Shown here piece after piece: positions 66 through 61,661 of a stretch of DNA of 64,000 nucleotides (positions are counted from its first letter, which is position 1; every line of letters starts with the position of its first letter). Source of the DNA: Catajapyx aquilonaris (lineage: Eukaryota); assembly GCA_000934665.2 (NCBI GenBank), contig KZ538036.1, positions 62,001-126,000 of the forward strand. The letters run 5' to 3'. The translations under genes were made by a program, and so were the position numbers. The notes under the pieces are model-generated. The model did no database searches. It was not told where the DNA came from and worked only from the letters and a program-made list of their open reading frames with translations.

Positions 66-3000
66 CTGCATGTCTGATGCAAATATTTGGAAAACAGTCG
101 GTCGAGGAGGTTCCCCCTTGACTGACACAATGGTAGTCAGATTCTCGTCCAGTTCAGGTATAACGTCAGTAAGTACAGCAGGTCTTGCAGACAGATTCCC
201 ACTACTTGGGATGTGCTCGATGCCTTTGGTATCTTCCGCTAGGCTACGCTCTCTGGTGAAGACCCTTCGGATAATAGAAGCAATGGACCCAGAGGCAGCC
301 CTGTTCAACTGGCCAGTACTGCTGGCCAAGGTTGACCTACTGGCATTTGACCTAAGGCTTGGTCGGCGGGAGTGGCGGCTGCTGAGGCGGCTCAGTCGGC
401 TTAGGCTGCGCTTTATGGGTGAGTCAGATGGGCTGCCCTGCATTGCACACATTTATTATTATTGTGTGTGTACAGTATTTGGCCAGTATGTCATCAGTAT
501 TATAGTCACATATTCACTGCACTTACTGTATGTCACATTGCGATACACAGGAACAAAGTTATGATTTCCCCAAAGTCCTTTCAACATGAACCCTCACTCA
601 ATCAGTTCAACATTTTTAAAAAAAGCCAAGAAAAGAAATGGTTAGTAAAAGCCACCACCTCTGGTTAGTACAACTTACAAGACAGCTTACAGGGGAGTCA
701 AAGACGTCGTCTTTGTCAGGGGCTAGGAGGGCTTCCTCTTCTGGCACCGCAATCCTCGCAGTGGATGCCTCTGGAGGCTCCTCTCTGTACTGCTCGGCTG
801 CCAGTGTGTAAGGAAGCTCCACTGGAAGAACCTCATCCCAATACTGATCCTTTATCAGCTCAGGATGCTCATGATGCATTTCGTCCACTATTAAGTACGA
901 CACCTGAGAATTTTTTTAAAATGAAAAAAGTGGGTTATATTGCATGAAGGCAATCAGTAGGATTTATCAGAAGGGAAAATCACTTGAATCCCAAATTGTT
1001 TACATAATATGATGCATTTTCAACCAGTAACAAATGCACTGGATTTCTGAAGTGATTTTACCTTTCCTATAACTGCACTATGATCAAGTGTAATGTATGT
1101 TGTCTGATCTTCATCACTTCCAATAATTATTGCACAGATATTACACAATATGGCTTTATTAATAATTGTCCAGAATGCACTGAATTTATCTGTGCTACAA
1201 TTTCACTGCCATTTGGTGACATCTTATTATTCCATAGTTATTAAAGGCTTTCATATCTCAGTGTTACAATTCATAATAGTACATTATTGAGATTGATATT
1301 ATCTAATATACTGCACTGTCATACATGATCCTACATGCTATGTTTTTTTGACAACATTATTACTGCACTTGTGTTGAGTGTTTATTACATTCTACATGAT
1401 AAACCACTAACTATATTAACTAAAATAAACCACACACAGTTACTTCCTGGGACATGTTGGTGTGAATCAGAGGAATCGCTCGACTGCACTTGCACACACT
1501 TTTAGTCAATGGAGAATAAAGCGACAACGTCTGTATATGTACTCACAGTGAGGTTGCGGTCTGTAAGCCAGTTGAGTTCAAAATCATCATCGTCATCTCC
1601 GAAGGGATTCAACAGGGACTCGGCTACTTTTAACCAGCCCATATAAAAAAAGAACTGCAGTAGCAGGGGGGGAAGCGCTTTAATATGGGGGAACACTAAT
1701 CAGGTGGGACTCACCTTCAGGTTTCTATCCACCAACCAGCTGATCTCAAAATCATCATCGTCCTCACCGAAAGGGTTAATCAGCGTCTCAGCTACCTTCA
1801 GCCAACCCATATAGAAAAAGAACTACAAGAGAGGAAACAAAGGTGCTGTAGAGAAAGAGACAGTTGAGAATAACAGACATGCTGTTGTGATGACACCAAG
1901 CCCAAGAGACAGGAATGTCCTTTAAAAATCAGACAACTTTACGTGCAATCTTTTTTGGCACTCAATCTTGCACATATTCATATTAACATTATTAACTGTC
2001 ATACTGCCAGAGTGATATGCTGCAATGAAACCCAGCATATTTCCAAACACAAATTCTCACATTTTCAAGATCGATAGTTGTTCATTCATCGATTACATGG
2101 TAGAGCATAACCTTCTCTAAAAATAAATTATTCTCACTGCAAAAATTCACTCACTCATCAGTGATACACACTGAAAATTTTTGACATGTTAGTTGTTGCA
2201 GCGGACAAAGCATTTCCACAATTAAAGCCCTCCACCTAAGCTATAATGGCAGACGTCTCCGCCAGTTGGCAAAGACAAATTGGTTTAAAAATAGCAACAA
2301 TAGCAGGCAAACTGACAGGCGGTTTTTAAAATAACTAAACATCTTCTGTAGCATTATCTTTAGCTAGGAATCATTAATTACTGAAGTTATTTTAAAAGCA
2401 CCAGATGGATCCAGCTGTTAGATATTGTTCCCTCGCACCGCCAATAATGAACAGATTGCTCAAAATAGCAATCAAAACTGGAGGACTATACGACCAAGAA
2501 ACCTTTATTATTCCACAGCATGCTCCACTACAACCAAGCAAAACGACAGGGGGTAAGAGTTAGACCAAAAGTGCCAAAAAAAAAAACTCATTCTTACCTG
2601 CAACGTAGTGAAGAGAGGAAACACAATGTCCAAATCACCTTTCGGGTTTCCTGGAGAGTTGACAAACTGCCGTCCCATCAAGCAGGCGAAGAAGAAAGAA
2701 TACACCGCAAGTGTCACCACCTGTCAACCCATAAAACAAGGAGTTAATTTTTTTGTACTAAACAAACACAACTTATTCAGACCTGAGTGTAGACCAGAGG
2801 GACACTGATCCAATCGTAGCTCAACAATGATCCACTGTCTCCTCTGAAGAGGTTGAGAGCATCTATGATTGTCTTGACAGCAAAGTCGTCCCTTATCCTT
2901 CCTTCTTTTCTGGCCCTTGTGACAATACTGGTTGACCACACGATGGGCAACCACTGCTTGGAGTAACCAGGAACCGTCTTGTTTAGGTCCTCGATTATTT

Positions 3001-6000
3001 CCTTCTCATTCTCCAGGAGAAGACCTGCCAAAATATGATTGCGGAAAGCAGTTCAAAAAGGATTATTCTTTGAGACAGTACACACCACCCTGTACCTGCT
3101 TCCACTAAATGGTCTAGTGTTGGAAATCGTTTTTTGACTCGTGGACTTATCATGGTGAAGACAATAGTGAGGCAAAGGCAGACGTAGCGCATGATGGTTC
3201 GTCTCATCAGGCGACCACGATCATCCTGTACGAAGCAGAAGACAAAAATATAGTTACAACCCAGATAAATCAAATATGCATAAATTAAACTGGACAGTCA
3301 TATTTTGGTGCAGTGAAAGACCGGTTATGGCCTACAAAGGGATGGATATATGAAAGGTATATGCAGTAATAGAAATCCGATATCCGTACCTAGCGCCGAC
3401 TTCATGTCGCGACTGCAAATTGTCGTCATACACTATACATAGTGTACCTTTAACGAGCATTGTCATGAATATTCATTAGCATCATGCGGATGTCGCCGAG
3501 ACATGCATTTTTTTTGGACAATCTTTTGCAAATAAGTGTCACTAATTTAGCAAACTTGCAGATTGGTAAAGACTATAGTAGTCGGTACCATTGACTCTTT
3601 TCAAAGGTTTTTCATCTGCTTGTAAGTTGAAGCTAATAAAAAATATAGACCTTTCAGAATCGACACTAACTTTCAAGGTGATCTGATTAGTTCCAGCCAG
3701 AAAGAAATTGAACGTCATCCGCACCTGTTACCTGAATGATTTTTTTCTTGCCGATCCTGTCATTCAATATAAGTTTTTTTTCTTCAAGAATAACTTTGTA
3801 CTGTAATAATTCCACAAGATATTAAATCGATACTATTGGCTCATGAAGACAAAATTAAATGAATAAATAAATCCGCTTTGACCTCTTTATGGAGGATGTT
3901 GCATGAACATTTATTATTTTTAGCTACCATACTATTAGTATCATACATCATGAAACTTTTTTTTTGCCAAACGCTCAAATAATAGACATATTAACACACA
4001 AAATGCAAATTTAATGTCCATAAAGGTGATTGAATGCAGAGGGGTACCTAGGTTACCTGGCGCCCTTGGCAAGAAGCTCTATCGGCGCCCCCCCCCCCCC
4101 CCCCCCCNAGGGGGCGCCTCTTCGGAAGGGGGCGCCTCTTCGGAAGGGGGCGCCTCTTCGGAAGGGGGCGCCTCTTCGGAAGGGGGCGCCTCTTCGGAAG
4201 GGGGCGCCTCTTCGGAAGGGGGCGCCTTCGGCGCCCCCCATCGGGTTGCGCCCTTGGCGGGGGCCAATTTCGCCACCCCCTAGGTACGCCCCTGATTGAA
4301 TGTACAGTCTATCACAAAAAGTTTTGCCCACTTTCGTCCAAGTTTTCCGTTCATTTTCGGCCAAAACTTTTTGTGACAGATAGTACTCTACGAGTACAAA
4401 GCAGATAGTGTAGCCTATTAGCTAAGTACTGCAATTAAAAGGATGGCTATTGCACTACCGTCATTACAGCTAAGTATTTTAAAAGACGGTTGGCACAGAG
4501 ACAAAATTCGCGATATTTTAACACCTGCGTTGTCACATCACACTGCATAGTAATAATATTGTGTGTGCATGTTTGTTTGCATGTCTGAATACAAAGTATG
4601 TCTCCACTGAGCTGCTCAACTAATTACCTTCCTCCTAGGATCAAGTTTAAAATGAAGAGTGCGTGTGAAAACATCCATTTCCTCTTCGCTGTCTTATAAA
4701 CCGGACCTGGCACTTGCACTTGTCCGTTACAGTTATTATGTGCAAAAAAGGTCACGAGTGCCATTCACCCCGAAGCATTGCATAATTTCCTGGCTGGGCA
4801 TAACAATACCAAAATTCAAATAACGCACCTTGGAAAATCGTTAGTCACATCAGGTAAATGACCAAGTACCCAGACTTTGAGGTGGTTCTTCAAGGTCTTC
4901 TAAGTAAATCTTCTGAGAAGTCCTTGAGAACACATCAAGTCACGCAAGTATTACAAGACGCGGCATACAGGAAGATGGCCTTTTTTAAAAAAAGGGCGAA
5001 ACTTATGCCTGAGGCTGACAATTTTCTAACGCCTATAGATTTCAACCTCAGATTACGTTTTATTCAGACAAAACCTTGAAACCTTTGTTTTCCTGGCTCA
5101 ATAATATTGCACACATGTCTGGAGCATTTCAGGAAATGCGAAATTTCGTCATCTTAAAAAGTTGGCCAACAGCCCACGAGCCAAAAGAGGTCCGAAAATA
5201 ACAGCAAAGTTCATAGAAACGTTTGCCAACACCAACGCCGACAAGTTTCGCAAACCTGTGCATTACTTTTTAAGCTCTCATACATATCACTCCGAGTGTT
5301 GAAATCGTAAAACACATTTTTAAAAATAAAAAATTGTACAAAATAATCTGTCAATCCAATTACACATTTTAAGCAAAATTGCAAAAAAAACTAAGTTGCC
5401 AATATTTTGACTAAATTGTGCTCTAAAATATTGTGAGAAAAGTGCACATGCTCTAGTGTGTGTAATTACAATAATGATATTATACAGTACAAGGCGATGT
5501 GAATTTTCTCCAAACTCATGGCCATGGCCCTAATTTGCCATAGATAGGCCCACGCTCATGTAATTAGGCGACACTTTCACGGCCACTGCGGTTCTAGGAA
5601 GCAGGTGAAAGTTAAAATACACCTGAGTAAATGCACTTGGGAGACACATTATTATGCAACTTTATATAGCACAACTGCATTGCGTCAAATTTTTCCACCG
5701 TGATTCTAAATGACTTGCACGGAATTTTGATAGGTAAATGGCATGAGATGTTAGAATTTGTAATAATATCAATAGTTTTACTGTACCTGACCGTGTACGC
5801 AGGCACTGACGTAAACGGCTATCGAGTCTGGCCACGGAATAGACGTGTACTGATTCCACCATCTAGTCACTACGATAGACACGTAGAAACCAAGCACAAA
5901 CGACACTGGGATGTAATTACCGTAATTCTCGCAGTAGCCACTTATTTTCTCGAAGACCCTGTAAAAAAAATTAAAAAAAAGTGTGACATTGACATGTGTC

Positions 6001-6814
6001 CTTCTATTTTGTCTCCTTGGCAGACCACCCATGTAAGCAAATCACAGTGTCATTTAAAACCCACGTGATTCGGTAACTTTTCAGCACCTGCCAGTCCAAA
6101 AAAAACTACTTTTTTTACAGTAATTCAAGGCAAAAAAAGGGGGTCAAAGGTCATGAACTCACCTCTTCTGATCCTCATCAAGCGCAAAACGGTACACGAA
6201 ACTGAGTGAAAAAAATATGGTCAGAAAGACCAGAAGGTCAGGCCACACCAACTTATATATGCTGCCACGCCACCTGCAATTAAAACACTTTTAATCGACA
6301 TTAAATTCGACAATGTTTAGATATGATAATAATGCAATATTTCTTCTAGTAGATACGATAATAATGCAATTTCTTCTAGTAGATACGATAATAATGCAAT
6401 TTCTTCTAGTAGATATGATAATAATAATGCAATTTTTCATTGTTTTCTGCTAGATATGATAATGAGGAGCATGAGGCAAAAATTAGCTATTTTTTTGACC
6501 TCGATTTGAGCATGGCCAATTTGTAATAAGTTGCGACATCATGTATTCTCGAGAGAGAAACATGAACCTGAATTTATCAACTGTGATCTCACTATCTTCA
6601 TAAGACCGGAAGTGGTTTCGCAAAAATGACATTGCTTCCCACGTACTGCACACTCTGTACAAGTAATTAAACAAAGAGCCAGCTGACATTTGGCATAATT
6701 TCAGGTATTCAATGTCAGTTGAAACCACGTGTCAATAACTCACCTAAAAAGTAACTTGAGAAAGCAACCAAATCCTTTCGAAGTGGCAACCTCTGCAGTG
6801 TATGTCACCGTCAT
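66..6814 (-). CDS. Best: Bestrophin Ca2+-activated chloride channel. Exons 6814-6744, 6273-6163, 5958-5787, 3225-3096, 3024-2783, 2720-2598, [1822-1715 or 1654-1547], 903-691 (alt donor 679), 437-66. The 3' end either reads to the stop at 45 or splices out of the window.
   Basis: Spliced translation gives [53 protein letters not shown] motif (KRFPTLDHL), [14 protein letters not shown] and [11 protein letters not shown]. All junctions are GT-AG with compatible phases. Confidence 0.95.
1547..1654 (-). other. Bestrophin duplicated exon B ([36 protein letters not shown])
   Basis: cag| acceptor, |gtgagt donor, 108 nt, phase 0/0, paralogous to exon A. Confidence 0.9.
1715..1822 (-). other. Bestrophin duplicated exon A ([36 protein letters not shown])
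   Basis: tag| acceptor, |gtgagt donor, 108 nt, phase 0/0. Not in the ORF track. Confidence 0.9.
4037..4294. mobile_element. hAT-type MITE with an internal 18-bp GC-rich tandem repeat
   Basis: Imperfect TIRs cagaggggtacctagg / cctaggtacgcccctg. 8-bp TSD attgaatg at 4029-4036 and 4295-4302. About 6 copies of ggggcgcctcttcggaag. Confidence 0.8.
6319..6440. repeat. About 30-bp intronic minisatellite, about 4 copies
   Basis: Repeated agatacgataataatgcaatttcttctagt. Confidence 0.75.
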
Positions 6815-7532: not shown

Positions 7533-7715
7533 GCAGTGGTGGCGGAGGGGATATGGTATCCGACTGCTAATCGGGAGGTCCTGGGTTCGAATCCCGGTGA
7601 CGGCAACTCTAACCGTGGTTTTCTGTCGTTTCCCACGGTTCCTCCAGGAGAATTCGGAGTTGTTTCCTAAACTAATAGGCCACAGCCGCCTCCTTCCTTT
7701 CCTATCCTATCCCAT
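7533..7715 (+). mobile_element. tRNA-derived SINE
   Basis: A-box-like tggcggagggg, gactgctaatc anticodon-arm-like segment and B-box ggttcgaatcc (7584-7594), followed by a non-tRNA body ending in a pyrimidine-rich tail. Confidence 0.7.
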
Positions 7716-33700: not shown

Positions 33701-36700
33701 TGCTCTGTTTCAGTTGATCTCCGGACACGGTGTACATTGCTGCGGCTCGTAAGCATGACTGGAAAAACACAGAATGTTAGTATACACATTTAATCAATCC
33801 TGTGCAGGCCGTACCTTGATGCACGAATCGGCAAGAGTGGGTGCTAGAACCGCCCTGAAGGCACTGGACACTTCTTGCTTGCTGCACATTCCAAGTGCCC
33901 TTGAAAACCTCTGTGCTTCCCTTCCCACCCTAACCAGTGCTCTTTGAAGCAGGTAGGAAAGACGTGGCACTGTCTCCATGGACACCCGCTCCAGGCATTC
34001 CCTGGCTCTTCCGTTCTGTAGCACTCGGAGAACCTCATGGCTGGACCACGGCAGATGTTGGAGCTCCACAAGACGGTTGTGTGAGTCCACCCACACAAAC
34101 TCATCCGCCGAAGTCACATTGGTTCCGATGGTCTCAAGGCTGGAGTGACGGAGCAGTCGACGGGTTGGCTCCCCTTCAGACCCACTCATGCTTGAGTACG
34201 TGGACGTGGAGTAAGATGATGACACATGTGAACGGAGAGTCAGCTGTTCAATAGCTGCCTTGATGTCCTCCAGTCCTGCCCCGCCTGGCTCCAACTGCAA
34301 GGAGTCATCTTTCGTGCGGTGCCTGGGACGGTTCTGGAGGGACCTACGTTGTGCCACATTCTTCGGGTGGATGGGAGGTGTTGGTAGTACGCTTGCGGAC
34401 AACCGCTCATCCTCCGGGACCGACTTAAGGTCTGATCTGTAGTGTTGGTGGTGCGCACGTGGAAGAGAGTCCAACGCTGGTGGAGATGACGATGAGGAAG
34501 TGTGGCCATCCGACATGCTGGCATGACCCGATGAACGCGTCTCATCTGAGGAGGAACCACCTCCACCTCTTCCGCCATTGTACGGATCCTGTCGCCTCTG
34601 CAATACACAAGTTCCATTACCACTTGTTGCTCGTAGTTATTGGTACCGGTAATGCATGCCATGTAAAGCAGATGCTGTTGATCACAATATTGGCTGAATA
34701 ATCCCATTTAAAGCAGGATATATTGTAAACTGTATTATCTAACCATATGCTTCACTCTTTAAGTAACAATTAAAATTAAAATCAGTAAAATGAAACCTGT
34801 ACATGCAGTTAATTACAATAACTGTCAAATGAGACTAACAGCTTTTCATGGTAAGTAATTGTGACTGATTGCTATTAAATGTGCTTAAAACCATAAAATC
34901 AGTTCACACCAATTTTCTAGGGGAAATATACGCTTCCGTTCTTTTTGACACAAGTACACAGTACCGCAATCATCCTGCACATACCCGCAATATTTCAAGG
35001 CCTCATTTTCACGATCATCGTTACGTAACCACGCCATAAACCCTGCAATTGTTCTGCCCGAAAAAAAAAAAAAATAACACGGTACGTCCCTTTAATTAAT
35101 CACGACCTCAAACCACAGTAGCTCCCATCGCATCATTCGTTTCAAGTTAAAAACTTCTCAAGTTGCAACTCACGAAAATCCTTTTACGATTTTTTTNGGG
35201 GGGTATGCGGTTAGGTGGGGGCTAATTCCATCTAATTCACATTTACAACTCGATTTACAGCACGTGTAAGAATTCAATGGGCCTCCAGGCTCCTTTTTTT
35301 TTAAATGATGATTCTTGAGACGAAATATTTCGTGACGAATGTAAGTTATAAGGTTCTGATGGCCTAGGTGTAAAGGGTTAGGTTTTGTTTTCATTTCGAA
35401 GGAAACGGGTTTGGTCGCTTCATAAATCCAGAGAAGAGGTGGGTGGGGTTGGTTGGTTGGAGGGGGGCAAGTGGAAACAGAAGGGGTAAGCAATTTTGCC
35501 TCCAGAGGACAACTTGGGTCATTGCTCGCCGACTCTTCCCCAACCAACACAGAGGCTAAAACAATCGGTTGGAAATGCCGTTTTTTTGTTTGTTTGTACG
35601 CTGATGGACATTAATGGTGTCGTACTGGTGGCGCCACGAGCAGAATATTAGCAACCAATCCCTTCGATTCGCTCTTTTGCCGCCATGGCTCATGGTTACA
35701 CCAGTACGACACCAGTTGCACCAATCCCCAGGAAACATTTTCCAGCCAGAAAATATCCACAAAAGTTAATTCGTTGTCGTCAACAGACAGGGTCAAACAA
35801 CTAGTAATATACTTTTTTCTGGCTCTTTTCCGGCCGGAAAAAGTGCAACCGGGCCTTATTGGTGCCGTCAGAACCGGTTGCACCACCTCCAGGAAACATT
35901 TTCCGTCCGGAAAATGAACCAGAAAAGTTAATCCCTTTCGTCAACAGACAGGGACAATGAATTTTTCTGGCTCTTTTCCGGCCGGAAAATGTTCTCCTGG
36001 GGTTGGTGCAACCAGGCCTTAATGGTGTCGTCAGAACCGGTTGCACCACCTCCAGGAAACATTTTCCGTCCGGAAAATGAACCAGAAAAGTTAATCATCT
36101 TCGTCAGCAGACAGGGACAAACAATGAATTTTTCTGGCTCTTTTCCGGCCGGAAAATGTTTTCCTGGGGTTGGTGCAACCGGGCTTTAATGGTGTCGTCA
36201 GAACCGGTTGCACCACCTCCAGGAAACAATTTCCGTCCGGAAAAAGAGCCAGCAAAGTTAATCCGTCCGGAAATGAACCAGAAAAGTTAATCGTCTTCGT
36301 CAGCAGACAGGGACAAACAATGAGTTTTGCTGGCTCTTTTCCGGCCGGAAAATGTTTTCCTGGGGTTGGTGCAACCGGGCTTTAATGGTGTCGTGAGAAC
36401 CAGTTGCACGACCTCCAGGAAACATTTTCCGTCCGGAAAAAAGCCAGAAAAGTTAATCGTCTTCGTCAACAGACAGGGACAAACAATGAGTTTTTCTGGA
36501 TCTTTTCCGGCCGGAAAATCTTTTCCTGGGGTTAGTGCAACCGGTTCTGCCGATGGCGGTTAAAGAGCTAGTTTATGGTTAGCGAATTTTGCTGCCTGTT
36601 GCTCGTGGCGCCACCAGTACGACACCATTAATGCTCTGTTGCACCATCTCCATAGGACAAATCCGGCTGGAAAGGAGCCTGAAAAAGTTTCTTACTCATG

Positions 36701-39700
36701 TTTATCCCTGTCTGTTGACGACAACGAATTGCTTTTCCGGCTATTTTCCGGTCGGAAAATATTTGTTGGAAGTGGTGCAACCGGGAATTATACTGTAGTA
36801 CCACCAGTACTACACTATTTAAACCCGGTTGCACCATCCCCAGGAAACATTTCGGGCCGGAAAAGAGCCAGAAAAAAGTCTGTTACTCATTATTTGACCC
36901 CGTCTGTTGATGGCAATGAATAACTTTTCCTGGCTCTTTTCCGGCCGGAAACTGTTTCTTGGAAGTAGTGCATGCAACCAGGCCTTAATGGTGTCGTCAG
37001 AACCGGTTGCACCACCTCCAGGAAACATGTTCCGTCCGGATAGGATCCAGTAAAAGTTTCTAACTCATTATTGTGTGTCCCTGTCTGTTGATGACAACGA
37101 ATAACTTTTCTGTGCTCTCTTTCCGGCCGGAAAATACTTTTTGTAGGTGGTGCAACCGTTAAGGCCCGGTTGCACAACCTCCAGGAAACATTTTCCGGCC
37201 GGAAAAAGAGCCAGAAAAGTTATTCGTTGTCGTCAACAGACAGGGTCAAACAATGAGTAAGAAACGTTTTCTGGCTCCTTTTCCGGCCAGAAAATGTTTC
37301 CTGGAGGTGATGCAACCGGATAAACGTCCAGCACTGGAGGGACCAAAGATGTACGTACACAGACCTGAAAGAGGCGTATCTCCTCGGCGCTCAGGTGATG
37401 CGGCAACCCCAGGAGATTCCGACGTCTCAGCTTGGATTTGGCTGGTGTCCGACGTCTTCCACCGGACAGCAGGACAGGGTCGCCGTCGGACGAGCTCTTC
37501 CCGAGTGACCCGCAGTCTGTTGACTCCGGAGTGCGACCTGCTGGCTGACCTTCATCTTCCTCCTCCTCCTCTTCTTCTGCGGGCTGGACTGTCAGTTGCT
37601 GCTCACCAGCCTTGTTCTTAAGGTCCGATTCGTCTATCACTATTTCGGATGGCGCTTTCCATTTGCTTGGGTCTGTCCAGCGATGTCCTCTGTCTGGAAA
37701 GGTGGACACGTCGCGTTCAGGCAGCTGTTGCGTCAGATCGCTTCCGGACGTGTCCACAACCGACGGTGATGACACGCTCTTGGACGTCTCCATGGCTCCT
37801 TTGTGAGGCTGCTGGGGTTCGGCCACGCTTCCTTCCAACTTGATCGGAGGTGACAGCATCCTTGGGGCCGCACCGGTACCGCCTCTCAGGTTATGCACCG
37901 TCGGAGTCTGACGCTGCACAGGCGGAACCTCCCGACTTGACGCCTTGTACACAACCCCAGCACTCTTGACCACACTTGCTGGAAAGGCAGGTCCGTGACA
38001 GTACTGCTCCCATGCGGTACCGGTACGGTCACGGTCGCCTCGCAGCATCTGGCTCTGGACCAAACGCTCCTTGGTCGGTGAACGTCCAGGAGATTCCCTC
38101 CAGACAGTCTGGAAAAATATTTTGTGGGAGACTTGAACGTGTGAATCAGCCACGATCTGGCGTTTGCTGGAGCCAACAACTTTGGAGCAATGTACTTTTT
38201 TTTTTAAAAGCCTGAAGGACACTGGTAATCACTGCTTCAAGGCTACTGCTCCTCAAACCGTGACGGATTTATCGCGTGAGAAGTTCGCGCATCTTTTAAT
38301 ATTATAATATTTACATACCGATTGGTTCCCTGGGCTCTGAGAATTTGGGGTCTTCAGGACCGGAACCGATCCGCCCAGGTCACGATTGACGGGCTTGAGG
38401 GAACCGAATGCTGTGGAGGAAGAGATGGACACTGGTATGGTCTGTCTGATTGTTGTTGCATCGTGTGACTCCGAGGGTGGTACCGCCACCATGGCACCTG
38501 GAGATGGTTGGGGTGCCCCGGAGCTGTACGGAGAGGCCATCCGGAGCATAAGAGAAGCCTCCCCTCCAGGTCTGAAGTGAAGAAAAAAAATGGTTACCCC
38601 CTCCGAAATTAGATGACCCAGCATGAGTTATTGTCTTTTGGGCTCCAACCAGTCTACATACCAACAGTTTTTTTTAATGTCTGCAGATTTTTGGTTTATA
38701 TTATAAGTAAAACGACATAGCTGGTGAGAACAAGTTTGGCTAATCCAACAACCTGACACTGTAGTCTAACGGTACTTTGCTTCCATAACTTTTGCATTGA
38801 CACCACTCGCACACACTGTCCATAAATTTGTCTCCAAAATGTTTGAACCACTGTCTCCACACACAAAAAAACAAATCCACGTCAATCACTTTTAAACTGT
38901 CCGTATACGTAATGTTGAGCTCCCAAGTTTGAACCCCCAAACCTGCCAAGCCCATCTAAGAAACTGATTGCCCTCCAGCCCCTTGCACCTGCACTCTTGA
39001 GCTGGCCCAGGACCCAATCTTGCAGGCTTGGAGATACAATCCGGACTGGGTCCTACTCCCAAGACTCATCCAAACCAAAAAAAAAAAAGGACTGGTTTCT
39101 ACTCCCATAGTTTCAGTATGGAATGTCATTCAGGATTTCACACTATATTCAGACTTGATTTTTTGGAGGGGAGGGGAAGTGAAAACTTGAATTATTTTTT
39201 TTAGGAGACCAACAGTCGCATCCTTTCAGACTGGGCTGGTCAAACAAAGACACTTGAGAAACCCAGCGGCCTTGAACGTCTTCTGGAGAGAAGATTCCAT
39301 CCCCTAACAGCTGTCTTGTTTGGCTGCTGTCAGTAGCCTACTGTCTCAAAAGAAGAAAAAAATCCTAGCAAAGAACAGGAAAATCAAAAGTTTACAGGAC
39401 AAAAGCAAAAAAAAGGGGGGTGCTTCTGATCAGTGATGTAATGTTATTACCGGTTGCGGTTTCCAGAATTAGTGTCCGTGCAAATAGTGGGCGTTTGGAG
39501 ACGCGCCATACTTCCACGTGTGTTATTTGGTGGGTACACACTTGCACAAAAAAAAAAGTCGTGGAGGCTTTCCAACTATTCAGTATCACATGAGTCGCTC
39601 GATAATTGAATCATCCTTTTTTTCATTCTAGAAAAAATGTATACCGCTGTATGTGTGTGACATATACAGCATTTTTTTTGTGGTTTTTTGTCCTGCTGTA

Positions 39701-53526: not shown

Positions 53527-55600
53527 TCAATTGGACCCCCCACTTTGCAGTTGGGCAGAACCAAGCTTATCCTCAACCACAGTGAGCCTCTTTTCCATGA
53601 CAGAGAGCGTCTTTCGCATCAGCTCCACCTGCTGTGCCATCCTAAGCAGCACGCTGTTGCTGTTATCTTGCTCATCACTGGAGTAGGAGTTTTCTGTATC
53701 TCCGGATGGTCCAGCCGTCGCGTCACCTGATTAGGCATGTGAAAGATAATGTTCAGTATAAGTTGTTTATTGACAAATTCTTCTGAGAAACATACCCAAA
53801 CTCCTGCTGCGCCTCCTGGAGAATTCTCCTGGTCCACCATCGGCCATCTCCACCACTTCCACTCGTGACTGGATGTGGTTTGGTATCTGGTCTCTAGCAT
53901 CCACTTCCACCTCGGCCCTACTTCTTATGCTGTCCTCCATATCTCTATCCTGGTGGTCCATAAGCCCGCCTTTCTTGGACTCCAACTTAATGTCCCACAC
54001 CATCACCAGCTCATCCTCACCTCCACTAGCCAGCTTGGTCCCACAAGCTGAAAAGTCGACGGATGTCACCCCTCCGTTGTGGCCATGCAAAGTGTAGATC
54101 GGACGGCCCTCAAGCAGATCCAGCACTTTCACCTGCATTGCGAGAGCAACTATTGTACACTATTTTTTTTTGCACATAGCGTCCAATTTACCTGTCCATC
54201 AGCAGAAGCGGTCGCCAGAAAATGACCAGACGGATGAAAGGCCACAGAGCGCACTTCCCCATTGTGGGCTTGATAGTGCTGCAGCATTCTTCGAGTACGC
54301 ACATCATACACTCGCACAATATTCTCGCCACCACCCATAGCCACCCCAATGCACGTTCCAGACGGATGAAACTCCACATAGTATGGCGTACCCTTGTTCT
54401 CGGTGAACGTATGCACAACAGCCTTACTGGTCGCATCAAACAGACGGGTGTTCCGATCGTCACAAACCGTAGCCACAAGGCGGCTGTCCGGCGAAAAGCG
54501 AGCGCATCGCACCCAGTTGCGGTGACCAGGAAAGAGCCGCACGAAACGACGCCTGCTCACATTCCACACCTACAATGTAAATTGCAATATGAATGACCAC
54601 AATTTGGACAGAACAAGGGTCACCGTTAGCATGTATGGAACATGTGGCAATGACCTTTAGCCTGTATGGAACATGTGTCAATGACCTTTAGCATGTATGG
54701 AACATGTGGCAGTGGCCTTTAGCATGTATGGAACATGCGGCAATGACCTTTAGCATGTATGGAACATGTGGCAGTGGCCTTTAGCCTGTATGGAACATGC
54801 GGCAATGACCTTTAGCATGTATGGAACATGTGGCAATGACCTTTAGCCTGTATGGAACATGCGGCAATGACCTTTAGCATGTATGGAACATGTGGCAGTG
54901 GCCTTTAGCCTGTATGGAACATGCGGCAATGACCTTTAGCATGTATGGAACATGTGTCAATGGCCTTTAGCTTGTGTGGAACATGTGTCAATGACCTTTA
55001 GCTTGTATGGAACATGTGTCAATGACCTTTAGCTTGTGTGGAACATGTGTCAATGGCCTTTAGCATGTATGGAACATGGGTCAATGACCTTTAGCATGTA
55101 TGGAACATGTGGCAATGACCTTTAGCCTGTATGGAACATGTGTCAATGGCCTTTAGCATGTATGGAACATGGGTCAATGACCTTTAGTGTGGGCAATACA
55201 AATTGTTCCAACTCACCTTGGCAGACTTGTCGTCTGAAGCAGTCACAAGATCCAACCCATCCGAACTAAACTGAACAGATCTGATAGCAGCCGAGTGTGC
55301 CGAAGGTATCTCCGTACTCTGTCCCCGTATGGTCGGAGTCCACATCCGAATCGATTTGTCCTTCGAGGACGTCGCAACCAGCTCACCAAAAGGAGACCAA
55401 GCCACATCAGTAACATGGTCAGAATGTGCCAGGAACCGATAGGCCCTAGACTGCTGTCGAAAGTTCCACACCACCAAAGTCGAATCCGTAGCACCCGACG
55501 CCAACTGCGGGTGACGCGGATTAAAAGCAACTGAGGTCACAACACCACGGTGACCCCTAAAATGCCGTTCCATACACGGAGTCTCAAGCGTCGCTGCCAT
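53527..55600 (-). CDS. POC1: POC1 centriolar WD40 protein. Exons about 55600-55217, 54569-54191, 54132-53796, 53726-53527.
   Basis: [51 protein letters not shown] and the C-terminal Poc1 coiled coil [24 protein letters not shown]. Confidence 0.92.
54627..55186. repeat. About 31-bp minisatellite, about 18 copies, in POC1 intron 1
   Basis: ttagcatgtatggaacatgtggcaatgacct tandem units. Confidence 0.95.
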
Positions 55601-55871
55601 GTTCGAAAATGTGTTCGATTAACGGATTTTCAGTTCGAATTCAGTGCTGCCATCTACAGTCAGATAGTTGTTAGTTTGACACTGTGGCCACTAGAGGCGG
55701 TAGTGTCGCTTAATGCGAACTTTTTTGTTATAATAGGGTCTATGGTTAAAGGCCTGAGAGAAAGGGAAGGAAACGTGGCTTCACATACGGAACATTATTT
55801 GTATGACTTACAATTACATTTTCTTAAAAATTACATTGTACTTAACATTTTGTATTACAGGTACGTAGAAG
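55601..55871. promoter_or_regulatory. Bidirectional promoter between POC1 and ABCE1 copy 1
   Basis: 271 bp between divergent ATGs. CTCF-like motifs agtgctgccatcta and tggccactagaggcgg. Confidence 0.55.
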
Positions 55872-58163
55872 ATGCCGCGTAATAAGAGTACGGAGGAGAC
55901 GGATAAGCTGACCCGGATTGCTATAGTCAATTCGGATCGGTGTAAGCCCAAGCGATGCAGGCAGGAGTGTAAGAAGTCATGTCCTGTTGTACGGATGGGT
56001 AAGCTCTGCATTGAGGTTACACCCAATGATAAGATATCGGCCATATCCGAGGAGCTGTGCATCGGGTGCGGGATTTGCGTTAAGGTAATTCTAGTACTGT
56101 ACGGCGACACTTGCACGTACATTAATCCCATTATTATGATTACAGAAATGTCCATTTGAAGCGATATCCATCGTGAACCTGCCGAGTAATCTGGAGAAAG
56201 ATACGACTCATCGTTACTCGCAGAACTCATTCAAGCTTCATAGGCTTCCGATTCCGAGGCCAGGCGAAGTACTGGGATTGGTGGGGACTAATGGTATCGG
56301 GAAGTCCACCGCGCTTAAGATACTCGCTGGAAAGCAGAAACCCAATTTGGGAAAGTACAATGTACGTAGTGGGTCGACCCCCCCCCTAATGTGACGAATG
56401 GCGTGACTAATTTACTTTTTTCTTCATAAAAAGGATCCGCCAGATTGGACGGACATTCTGAACCACTTTCGTGGTTCCGAGCTGCAGAACTACTTTACCA
56501 AGATATTGGAGGATGATCTGAAGGCGCTGATTAAGCCTCAGTATGTTGATCAGATTCCAAAGGCTGTCAAAGGTTCCGTACAGCAGCTTCTTGATAAGAA
56601 AGATGAGCTCAAAATTCAAGATCGCATATGTGAAATGCTGGGTTAGTCTGTTTTTTTATTTGATTGCACGATGTTGAGACATAAACGCATTTGTTGCTTT
56701 ATTCCCTTTTCAGATTTATGTAATGTGAAGGATCGCAGTGTGGAAGATTTGTCTGGTGGGGAGCTTCAACGTTTTGCTATTTCCATGGTGTGTATCCAGA
56801 AGGCAGACATATTTATGTTTGACGAGCCCTCTTCCTACCTGGACGTGAAGCAGCGTTTGAATGCTGCCGTCACAATTCGGTCCCTCATAGACGCAGACAA
56901 GTTCATCATTGTCGTGGAGCACGACTTGTCAGTGCTGGATTACCTCTCTGATTTCATCTGCTGTCTGTATGGGGTGCCTGGGGCATACGGTGTAGTCACC
57001 ATGCCCTTCTCTGTCAGAGAAGGTTTGCGCAGTTAATATTCATGGCTATATCGCCTATTCGCTGACTTGTGCAATGTATTATGCATTTACAGGTATCAAT
57101 ATCTTCTTGGATGGTTTTGTCCCAACTGAGAATCTCCGTTTCCGAGAGGAATCACTCATCTTCAGGGTTGCAGAGTCTGCTGCAGAAGAGGAAATAAAGC
57201 GCATGAACCGATATGAGTACTCGAAGATGTCCAGGACGATGGGGAAGTTCAAGCTGCATGTTGAGCCTGGGCAGTTTACAGACTCTGAGATTCTCGTGAT
57301 GCTTGGAGAGAACGGCACTGGGAAGACCACTTTCATCAGGATGTTGGCAGGGAAACTTGCACCTGACGATGGATCAGGCTAGTACATTTCCTACCTTTGT
57401 ATTTGCATGGCTGGCGGTGAGGGCTAATCTTTCCTCCTCTTCAGGTGATGTACCGCAGCTGAATGTGAGTTACAAACCCCAGAAGATCAGCCCAAAATCT
57501 CAAGGCACAGTCCGTGCCCTGCTGCATGACAAAATTCGGGATGCATATGTCCACCCGCAGTTCATGACAGACGTGATGAAGCCTCTGAAAATAGACGACA
57601 TCATAGACCAGGAGGTGCAGAATCTCTCTGGAGGAGAGTTGCAACGAGTCGCATTGGCCCTCTGCCTTGGAAAGCCTGCCGATGTTTATCTGATTGATGA
57701 GCCTTCTGCTTACTTGGATTCTGAGCAGCGTTTGGTGGCCGCTAAGGTCATCAAGAGGTGAGCATTTCAGTGAGTAATCAGAAGTTGGCATATCTGAATT
57801 TCTTTGTCCGCAGATTCATCCTCCATGCAAAGAAGACTGGTTTCGTGGTAGAGCATGACTTCATCATGGCTTCATACCTGGCCGACAGAGTGATTGTGTT
57901 TGAGGGCAAGCCTTCTGTTGAGACCACGGCTCATATTCCCCAGAACTTGCTAGCGGGGATGAACCGATTCTTGGAACTGCTAGGTATTACTTTCAGGAGA
58001 GATCCGAACAACTTCCGACCCAGAATCAACAAGAGCAACTCGGTCAAGGTGAGTTGCAGGAGACGGTTACGTGATAGTGGCTTGAACTGATGCAAATGTC
58101 GTTGCTTTGTTGCAGGATGTGGAGCAAAAAAGAGCTGGCCAGTACTTTTTCCTGGAGGACTGA
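55872..58163 (+). CDS. ABCE1: ABCE1 / RLI1 / pixie ribosome recycling ATPase, copy 1
   Basis: Fe-S domain ([22 protein letters not shown]), two NBDs ([24 protein letters not shown] twice) and C-terminus [15 protein letters not shown]. Confidence 0.96.
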
Positions 58164-58899
58164 ACAGCTTATTGAATCTCTGAAATAATTGCATGGAAAT
58201 GTACCACCTGTTTTTTTTTTCATCTTCTGTACGAATAGACTTTTGTAAATTTACAGTTTGACAAAAGGGACAGTGAAGTAAAGTGAAGATGAACAATGTT
58301 GGACTTTACACATTACACCTTCCTGTACGTAATATGTGTTCACAAGCTCATGAGAATCCCTCATAGTTTGAGCATATGTTTGTTTGTTGACTTCTCCTTT
58401 TAAAATGTCTCTGATCCACTTTTTCGGATCATATGAGCTTGTCTTCACACCTGAATGTTTCTTTATAGGTGTATGGTTTGGTGAAGGAGTTTATGAGCTG
58501 AGAGCATCGTAATTTTTTGTACCTGTCAATTTTTGTCAGGGCATCATAATTAGTAAAATAGACTGGTTAAAAAAAAACTCCGATGAATACGACTATTTCT
58601 ACGAGACTGTGGCAAGTCATGATTACGCTGGTAATCAGCTGCACATTACGAACATGTCTTATAAGAAATGACACATTTTGAATCAAAGCCGGGAGTAAAA
58701 TTGACACAGGATCACCTTCAGTAGATTATGTTAGCTCTATATTGAGTAAGAGTTATCTATGTGTTATCTCGCTCTGACGAGAGGGAAGGAAACGTGGCTG
58801 CACATACAGAACAAGCCCAGGAGCCTAGCCACACAGGTTGTAAGCACAGGATTACTTCAGCTACATACTTTACATACTTGCGTTACAGGGCCATAGAAG

Positions 58900-61177
58900 A
58901 TGCCGCGTAATAAGAGTACGGAAGAGACGGATAAGCTGACCCGGATTGCTATAGTCAATTCGGATCGGTGTAAGCCCAAGCGATGCAGGCAGGAGTGTAA
59001 GAAGTCATGTCCTGTTGTACGGATGGGTAAGCTCTGCATTGAGGTTACACCCAATGATAAGATATCGGCCATATCCGAGGAGCTGTGCATCGGGTGCGGG
59101 ATTTGCGTTAAGGTAATTCTAGTACTGTACGGCGACACTTGCACGTACATTAATCCCATTATTATGATTACAGAAATGTCCATTTGAAGCCATATCCATC
59201 GTGAACCTGCCGAGTAATCTGGAGAAAGATACGACTCATCGTTACTCGCAGAACTCATTCAAGCTTCATAGGCTTCCGATTCCGAGGCCAGGCGAAGTAC
59301 TGGGATTGGTGGGGACTAATGGTATCGGGAAGTCCACCGCGCTTAAGATCCTGGGTGGGAGGCAGAAACCCAATTTGGGCAAGTACAAAGTACGTTCATG
59401 ATCATGTTTGCCATTTATGACTTACCCGACTAACGAACATTTTCTTAAAAGGATCCACCAGACTGGACGGATATTCTGACCCATTTTCGTGGCTCTGAGC
59501 TGCAGAACTACTTCACCAAGATTTTGGAGGACGATCTGAAGGCACTGATCAAGCCTCAGTATGTGGACCAGATTCCGAAAGCAGTGAAAGGCTCGGTTCA
59601 GGAGCTCCTTGATAAGAAAGATGAGCTCAAAATACAAGATCGCATTTGTGAAATGCTGGGTTAGTGCATTTTATTTGGTTACATGAACATGTTCATTGCT
59701 TTGTTCCTTTCCAGATTTATGTAATGTGAAGGACCGAAGTGTGGAAGATTTGTCTGGTGGGGAGCTTCAACGTTTTGCTATTGCCATGGTGTGTATCCAG
59801 AAGGCAGACATATTTATGTTTGACGAGCCCTCTTCCTACCTGGACGTGAAGCAGCGTTTGAATGCTGCCGTCACAATTCGGTCCCTCATAGACGCAGACA
59901 AGTTCATCATTGTCGTGGAGCACGACTTGTCAGTGCTGGATTACCTCTCTGATTTCATCTGCTGTCTGTATGGGGTGCCTGGGGCATACGGTGTAGTCAC
60001 CATGCCCTTCTCCGTCAGAGAAGGTTTGCGCAGTTAATATTCAAGGCTATATCACCTATTCGCTGACTTGTGTAATGTATTTTTCATTTACAGGTATCAA
60101 TATCTTCTTGGATGGTTTTGTCCCAACTGAGAATCTTCGTTTCCGAGAGGAATCACTCATCTTCAAGGTGGTAGAGTCTGCTGCAGAAGAGGAAATCAAG
60201 CGCTTGAACCGATATCAGTATCCAAAGATGTCCAGGACGATGGGCAAGTTCAAACTGCACGTCGAGCCGGGACAGTTTACGGACTCCGAGATTCTCGTGA
60301 TGCTTGGAGAGAACGGCACTGGGAAGACCACTTTCATCAGGATGTTGGCAGGGAAACTTGCACCTGACGATGGATCAGGCTAGTACTTTTCCAGTACTTT
60401 TCTTACCTTTTTATTTGCATGGCTGGCGGTGAGGCCGAATCGTTCCTCCTCTTCAGGTGATGTGCCGCAGCTGAATGTGAGTTACAAACCCCAGAAGATC
60501 AGCCCAAAATCTCAAGGCACAGTCCGTGCCCTGCTGCATGACAAGATTCGGGATGCATATGTCCACCCGCAGTTCATGACAGACGTGATGAAGCCTCTTA
60601 AAATAGATGACATCATAGACCAGGAAGTGCAGCATCTCTCTGGAGGAGAGTTGCAACGAGTAGCATTGGCCCTCTGCCTTGGAAAGCCGGCCGATGTTTA
60701 TCTGATTGATGAGCCTTCCGCTTACTTGGATTCTGAGCAGCGTTTGGTGGCCGCTAAGGTCATCAAGAGGTGAGAATTTCAGTGAGTCATCAGAAGTTGG
60801 CATATCTGATTATCTTTGTCCGCAGATTCATCCTCCATGCAAAGAAGACTGGTTTCGTGGTAGAGCATGACTTCATTATGGCTTCATATCTGGCTGACAG
60901 AGTGATTGTATTCGAGGGCCAGCCTTCTCTCGAGTGCACAGCTCACGTTCCCCAGAACTTGCTGGGAGGGATGAACCGATTCTTGGAACTGCTAGGTATA
61001 ACTTTCAGGAGAGATCCAAACAACTTCCGACCCAGAATCAACAAGAGCAATTCAGTCAAAGTGAGTTGCAAGAGACTGTTATGTGGTTGCGGCTAGAACT
61101 GATGCCAAATCATTATTGCTTTGTTGCAGGATATGGAGCAAAAGAGAGCCGGACAATACTTTTTCCTAGAGGACTGA
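58900..61177 (+). CDS. ABCE1: ABCE1, tandem copy 2 (intact)
   Basis: Same exon structure and motifs, ends [15 protein letters not shown]. No stop or frameshift seen. Confidence 0.93.
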
Positions 61178-61661
61178 ACAGCTCCTTGATTCTGTGGAAA
61201 TAATAGCTTGCGAACCATACCACATTTTTTCCCGTAATTTACAGTGTTACCTCGCCTAATTGTCATGCTGGTGTGTACAAGTAGTCCAGGTCCCGACTAG
61301 TTTTTATTCGACATGATCTGGTGACTCTACCAGCAAGTTGTTCTAAGTTGGGTATGCTGGTATGGGGCAAACTTCCATTAACCCCTTGGCTACCATATAT
61401 GCTTGAACCACATAGATTTTGGCTTACATGTACTCTGATGATACGTACAAGATATTTTACAAATAATGACAGCTATACTTACCCGCTCAGGGAAAACACC
61501 ATGAATGTGTCTCTGGAACCATTTTACTCGTCTAGAAGTTCCTAAATTAATTTCCAAGAAAAGGCCATAAAAACTCGGAATAAGAGTACTGCCGACCAAC
61601 TGTTAAGCTGATTTAATTACGACAAATTTGAAAATTTGCTGAATAACAGCCTTGAGAACCA

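Follow-up and report, generated by a model that had tools for sequence, protein, structure and literature searches.

A bestrophin gene lies on the minus strand near the start of the window, by which we mean the whole 64,000-nt stretch of the Catajapyx aquilonaris assembly analysed here (GCA_000934665.2, contig KZ538036.1, positions 62,001 to 126,000), and the exon of this gene that encodes the Ca2+ clasp is present twice, as two neighbouring copies referred to below as exon A and exon B. The clasp serves as the sensor for the opening of bestrophin channels and is a hot spot of human Best-disease mutations. The duplication of this exon is real. Its best explanation, and in our judgement a probable one, is an old tandem duplication within an arthropod-type Best1 gene, after which both copies were kept coding and came to be used one at a time. 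The pair probably belongs to a well-known type of splicing device, in a family and at a site for which we found no description of it.

The clasp exon pair and its constraint

The pair consists of the following elements, in the order of transcription:

Exon A: 1822-1715, minus strand; 108 nt, phase 0-0, 36 residues; clasp FGEDDDDFE, equivalent to human BEST1 281-316
A-B intron: 1714-1655, minus strand; 60 nt, GTGAGT...CAG
Exon B: 1654-1547, minus strand; 108 nt, phase 0-0, 36 residues; tandem copy with the clasp FGDDDDDFE

The original prediction had described two 108-nt phase-0 exons 60 nt apart with intact splice sites, and the coordinates, the translations and the AG and GTGAGT boundaries confirm it. 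The acceptor of one copy reads ...cttgtag and that of the other ...ctactgcag, the donor is gtgagt in both, and a pyrimidine-rich tract lies upstream of the acceptor AG of each exon; judged by consensus (AG before the exon, GTGAGT after it), the splice sites of A and B both appear usable. Both exons match positions 281-316 of PF01062 (Pfam Bestrophin; A, 70.4 bits and E 1.9e-19; B, 68.1 bits and E 9.3e-19; cut-off 24.2 bits), and residues 281-315 of human BEST1 in solved structures align to both, the E values of A and B against BEST1 structures, chicken BEST1, BEST2 and other bestrophin chains ranging from 1e-13 to 1e-17. The earlier assignment of this segment to the end of the last transmembrane helix and the Ca2+ clasp agrees with these alignments. 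In tblastn with two reference bestrophins, the clasp exon was matched twice and each other exon of the gene once. A and B are adjacent homologous exons of the same length and the same phase that encode one and the same protein segment.

The two copies are identical at 80 of 108 nt (74%). Their similarity ends at the splice sites, where 14 of 30 nt match upstream and 13 of 30 downstream, six of the downstream matches being the shared GTGAGT, and the flanking introns of A and B have lost any mutual resemblance. Codons differ at 20 of the 36 positions, 13 of them synonymously, which bears out the many synonymous differences noticed earlier, and seven with a change of residue; by codon position (1/2/3), the differences number 7, 3 and 18. 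By the Nei-Gojobori method, 16.3 of 20.3 synonymous sites differ (pS 0.80, saturated) versus 11.7 of 87.7 non-synonymous sites (pN 0.13), giving a Fisher p of 1.7e-8 on rounded counts. When neutral change was simulated from exon A, an open frame with at least 29 of the 36 residues unchanged survived in 2 of 20000 runs at 0.3 substitutions per site and in none at 0.6 or 1.0. Most likely, the duplication is old and both copies stayed coding, and both look constrained. Strong purifying selection on both copies argues that B, too, is a coding exon, and it is from this selection that we infer its use.

The nearest database exons are identical to A and B at 31-33 of 36 residues, and the two copies are about equally near the common arthropod sequence. 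The annotated springtail orthologues have one clasp exon, which is B-like: B is identical to it at 33 and 32 of 36 residues and A at 30 and 29, and S, D, L and N at the equivalents of human 293, 300, 307 and 308 are common to B and the springtail orthologues.

The stretch N-P-F-G-(E/D)-D-D-D-D-F-E is present in both exons and aligns with human residues 296-306; D301-D304 and N296 are identical in A and B. Passages of a bestrophin review (PMC8496536) name as Ca2+ ligands the D301 and D304 side chains, the carbonyls in the main chain of A10, Q293 and N296, plus a single water molecule, and describe E300, D302 and D303 as having no direct part in Ca2+ coordination. The residue swaps between A and B, in human numbering, are T/S at 293, I/L at 295, E/D at 300, I/L at 307, S/N at 308, V/T at 311 and K/T at 316. 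Four of these seven positions (293, 295, 300 and 307) coincide with positions at which part of another paper (PMC2650406) lists current-reducing human disease mutations; many arthropod bestrophins nonetheless normally have D at position 300. It had been proposed that an E/D swap in the clasp could tune Ca2+ sensitivity. The swap is indeed present at the human E300 position, although E300 is described as non-coordinating and D301, D304 and N296 are unchanged. Both isoforms would keep the equivalents of these three residues and differ at seven flanking positions; it is a reasonable expectation that these differences shift Ca2+-dependent gating without abolishing it. A natural isoform pair differing in a 36-residue module alone would be a ready-made experiment on the residues that set Ca2+ sensitivity.

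Splicing of the pair and competing explanations

RNA data came from one public run (X1; assembled contigs, kind unrecorded, 0.36 of sampled words), and four GT..AG joints in its contigs indicate that the run derives from RNA. A spliced contig of 1634 nt runs through e9, e8 and A (exon numbers as in the list further below), in which the joint 900->1712 (cut +3) leads from the donor of A directly to e8 and skips B. The intron removed from this A-only mRNA (904-1714, 811 nt) includes B, and its CT..AC ends on the plus strand correspond to GT..AG on the gene strand. The A-only isoform exists, and the 1715-903 junction, one of those that the original prediction had proposed to count, is present in the spliced contig that lacks B. 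The 204-nt and 71-nt introns of the gene are also seen as spliced joints in these contigs.

Exon B is found in a contig of 266 nt (1445-1710) that matches the genome colinearly with 0 differences and comprises B, the 60-nt intron and 102 nt of the downstream intron, unspliced; a further unspliced contig covers 883-1137. The intron that holds B may be removed slowly. Contig depth is 2.1 for 883-1137, 4.3 for 1445-1710 and 11.2 for the spliced mRNA contig, depths being a poor measure. The contigs leave e6 (2598-2720), the 5' part of A (1774-1822) and most introns uncovered, and such gaps do not amount to absence. No spliced contig with B and no 1715->1654 joint occurs among the contigs of this run, which represent one sample and drop rare variants. 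Of the one-or-the-other splicing proposed earlier, the A-only junction now stands on RNA and B looks constrained; exclusivity itself, with spliced B not found in these contigs, is what we infer.

Under one-at-a-time use, splicing of e6 to A and of A to e8 yields the isoform seen in RNA, and splicing of e6 to B and of B to e8 would yield another isoform of identical length, whose use is probably restricted to particular cells, stages or conditions. Inclusion of both A and B, or of neither, keeps the reading frame (108 nt), so that nonsense-mediated decay cannot enforce the choice and only splicing control or protein function could. Retention of the A-B intron would truncate the protein, since its fifth codon is an in-frame TGA (1702-1700). 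Two factors may act against the joining of A to B. The first is the geometry of the 60-nt intron, whose branch motif would be near the donor of A and far from the acceptor of B, and the second is that a protein with the helix end and the clasp repeated should not fold properly. The single YTNAY in this intron is CTGAT at 1704-1700 (intron positions 11-15), followed by a C/T-rich tract; taken as a motif match, its branch-like adenine would lie 15 nt from the donor of A and 45 nt from the acceptor of B. In the steric-hindrance model of alpha-tropomyosin exons 2/3, a vertebrate case, the branch point of the downstream exon is reportedly too near the upstream donor. A steric block of A-B joining is plausible here.

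RNA pairing was also considered as a route to exclusivity and was set aside, the fold, inverted-pair and duplex tests having yielded nothing that could be trusted. The RNA fold of 1500-1880 has a z of -0.12. Inverted pairs with a seed of 8 number seven in 1741 nt, as compared with about 20 such seeds by chance on a rough estimate; exon A would be looped out by one of the seven, 1669-1684 with 2221-2236 (16 nt, 81%). The duplex energies between the A-B intron and the flanking introns were reached by 11/200 and 2/200 shuffles, and the duplexes contain huge interior loops and are untrusted.

Several observations weigh against one-at-a-time use or against the mechanism suggested for it. The sole spliced contig across the region has A without B, and B is covered by an unspliced contig only. 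Among other arthropod bestrophins, an alternative clasp exon is absent from 130 proteins in 20 clusters, and no tandem copy is present in 13 metagenome loci that hold the clasp exon; five of these 13 loci split the clasp exon elsewhere (after FFFYMGWLK) and so come from other lineages. Selection was measured on the pair, in which a recent abandonment of B would not yet be visible. As to the steric block, one intron of the gene that must be spliced measures 62 nt and another, confirmed by RNA, 71 nt, so that a length of 60 nt is not too short as such. Furthermore, a weak TTAAA occurs in the A-B intron at 24-26 nt from the 3' end, a position like that of TTAAC in the 62-nt intron, and in two of the gene's eight other introns the last 60 nt contain no YTNAY, which makes the motif a poor predictor. 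The idea that a branch-like motif close to the donor of A blocks A-B joining thus keeps its CTGAT 11-15 nt into the intron and loses force through the spliced 62-nt and 71-nt introns.

The main rival to one-at-a-time use, which we consider unlikely, is that B is no longer used and persists as a silent pseudo-exon in the 811-nt intron, A being in effect constitutive. The skipping of B in the spliced contig speaks for it, as do the appearance of B, in one run, only unspliced beside other intronic sequence (883-1137) and the failure to find relatives with an alternative clasp exon among the proteins and loci just mentioned. However, synonymous sites are saturated and yet only seven of 36 residues differ, B has neither stop nor indel, its splice sites are consensus, and in simulation neutral drift of such an age leaves such a copy in at most 1e-4 of cases. 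Moreover, B is nearer than A to the exon of the springtail orthologues, and contigs from a single sample, from which rare variants are dropped, cannot show that B is never used. Should B never be used, the finding would be merely an unusually well-preserved duplicate.

A much less probable alternative makes B a cassette exon added after A, in which case the 60-nt intron would be spliced to give a channel with a repeated 36-residue segment. In its favour, inclusion of A and B together keeps the frame, the intron at 60 nt differs little from those of 62 and 71 nt in the gene, and TTAAA lies at a normal distance from the 3' end of the A-B intron. Against this, the 1715->1654 joint is not seen in the run X1 contigs, the distance from the donor to the sole consensus branch motif is 15 nt, and the segment comprises, according to passages of PMC8496536, a membrane helix end and the single Ca2+ site of each subunit. 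In addition, none of 344 database proteins has an adjacent in-tandem repeat of the 36-residue segment. Five of the database proteins contain the clasp motif more than once, being either fused whole genes or the protein P0004; tandem clasp exons in these five were rejected as gene-model artefacts, since they are fusions or, in P0004, a repeat of the segment within an exact 78-residue two-exon repeat with the next exon missing, which looks like an artefact of the model. Finally, that the second copy is an artefact of assembly or haplotype is scarcely credible, as single-N gaps do occur elsewhere in the window but the copies are merely 74% identical with unrelated flanks and a run X1 contig matches 1445-1710 with 0 differences, although the run may share its organism with the assembly.

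The host gene and the rest of the window

The gene that houses the pair is an arthropod-type Best1 orthologue, not a vertebrate one, and groups with springtail sequences. A tree of 35 rows places it as the sister of three springtail sequences (support 95/88), and an Orchesella orthologue is 73% identical to it over 393 columns. The exon map rests on stop-to-stop frames, on the tblastn matches to two reference bestrophins and on four spliced joints; beside A and B, it comprises:

e1: 6814-6744, minus strand; ATG at 6814
e2: 6273-6163, minus strand
e3: 5958-5787, minus strand
e4: 3225-3096, minus strand
e5: 3024-2783, minus strand
e6: 2720-2598, minus strand; constitutive exon upstream of A, translation ending TTLQ, donor CAG/gtaaga, PF01062 positions 239-280
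Introns e1 through e6: 470, 204, 2561, 71 and 62 nt
e6-A intron: 2597-1823, minus strand; 775 nt
B-e8 intron: 1546-904, minus strand; 643 nt
e8: 903-691, minus strand; 213 nt, phase 0-0, downstream of B
e9: 437-66, minus strand; 372 nt, C-terminal region, spliced joint 436->690, 49% identity to the Allacma fusca C-terminus

Joined together, e1-e6, A, e8 and e9 form 1542 nt that encode 514 residues with no stop. A donor at 65 follows e9, where the RNA contig has a loose end, pointing to one or more further exons beyond the start of the window, and the C-terminal end of the protein is outside it. Five exon translations pass the PF01062 cut-off of 24.2 at 35-94 bits. For the C-terminal exon e9 (124 residues), no protein match at E <= 0.001 was obtained among 1020 candidates. 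Among the matches listed, no protein is more than 93% identical over the clasp exon or more than 83% over e8, so that the species and its near relatives are seemingly missing from the protein collection; a search with an eIF4G-like frame likewise returned no informative taxon. In a relative, isoform X2 of the Ischnura elegans bestrophin-2-like protein (P0056), ...VYTQ is joined directly to FFFYMGW and the equivalent of e6 is skipped.

Within intron 3 of the gene, at about 4050-4300, lies a G/C-rich tandem repeat that translates in several frames as GAPLRK or EGGASS units; it adjoins a single-N gap at 4108, and short high-depth run X1 contigs match 4126-4173. Just upstream of the start of the gene, a tRNA-Ser (GCT) match is present at 7533-7605 on the plus strand (37.4 bits with Rfam, and also called by ARAGORN). 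It sits inside a longer open frame and may represent either a tRNA gene or a repeat derived from a tRNA; the Rfam scan returned no match other than this tRNA.

Further repeats are found elsewhere in the window. A tandem segmental duplication lies at 55839-58215 and 58866-61230 (about 2.4 kb, 91% identity over 2394 aligned nt); on the plus strand each copy carries a fragment of an ABCE1-like gene, and on the minus strand an open frame of 133-138 residues. A tandem array at 54622-55187 has a period of about 31 nt (self-matches at 31, 62, 93 and so on) and adjoins coding frames of a WD40-repeat (POC1-like) protein, and 35711-37319 holds a cluster of dispersed or tandem repeats with 77-95% identity.

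Comparison with known systems

The clasp of vertebrate BEST1 and BEST2 (8D1O, 4RDQ, 6N26, 8D1E and others) resembles that of both copies in the conserved F/G-(E/D)DDDDFE motif and N296, and differs from the present case in that the segment occurs in a single version among the genes matched here. Neither the word 'splice' nor the word 'isoform' appears in the passages of the bestrophin review (PMC8496536).

With tandem-duplicated and mutually exclusive exons in general, as treated in four papers (PMC5740500, PMC9741552, PMC8373072 and PMC4165533), A and B share the arrangement of neighbouring homologues that have equal length and code for one structural element. Such exon pairs are mostly ancient, under selection and common in ion channels. 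No bestrophin case came up in our literature searches. In the human survey among them (PMC5740500), a donor-to-branch distance below 50 bp was counted as 'steric interference', which applied to 57 clusters (9%).

Exons 4a and 4b of OGDH, as described in PMC7969005, form a tandem pair used one at a time, give isoforms that differ in Ca2+ sensitivity and have a distant-branch-point arrangement, the geometry that the original prediction had proposed for A and B. Unlike the bestrophin gene, OGDH encodes an enzyme of vertebrate metabolism whose branch points have been mapped, whereas here CTGAT is a motif match and the organism splices introns of 62-71 nt.

Precedents come from the bestrophin family itself. 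Isoforms of equal length that swap a homologous exon at residues 120-159, corresponding to e4, are found in Penaeus indicus, P. chinensis, P. japonicus and P. vannamei (from RefSeq or transcriptomes; P0091/P0250, P0247/P0248, P0098/P0252 and P0319/P0320 in Penaeus spp.), and isoforms that swap one at residues 62-116, corresponding to e3, are found in the leafhoppers Macrosteles, with three versions (P0113/P0261/P0264), and Graphocephala (P0266/P0268). As in A and B, one homologous exon-sized block differs within the same family, by 11-13 residues at 120-159 and by 13-20 at 62-116. The swaps of Penaeus spp., Macrosteles quadrilineatus and Graphocephala atropunctata differ from the present pair in lying at e4 and e3, the clasp exon being single in each listed isoform. 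Judged from these sequences, tandem alternative exons recur in the bestrophin family, at different exons. Listings of open-literature titles and abstracts contained no paper on alternative or duplicated exons in bestrophins, the shrimp and leafhopper swaps included.

These exon swaps in shrimp and leafhopper bestrophins make one-or-the-other splicing the best reading of A and B. We put forward, tentatively and as a possibility that falls short of even expectation, that exon swapping has diversified the gating of arthropod bestrophins and arose separately in no fewer than three different exons, namely e3 (leafhoppers), e4 (penaeids) and the clasp exon (this gene), and that B is the springtail-like copy (S293, D300, L307, N308) and A a derived one that is now the main version. 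If this is true, a single gene here would give rise to two channels with differently tuned Ca2+ sensors. Together with the shrimp and leafhopper swaps, bestrophins would then join the ion-channel families that use tandem alternative exons.

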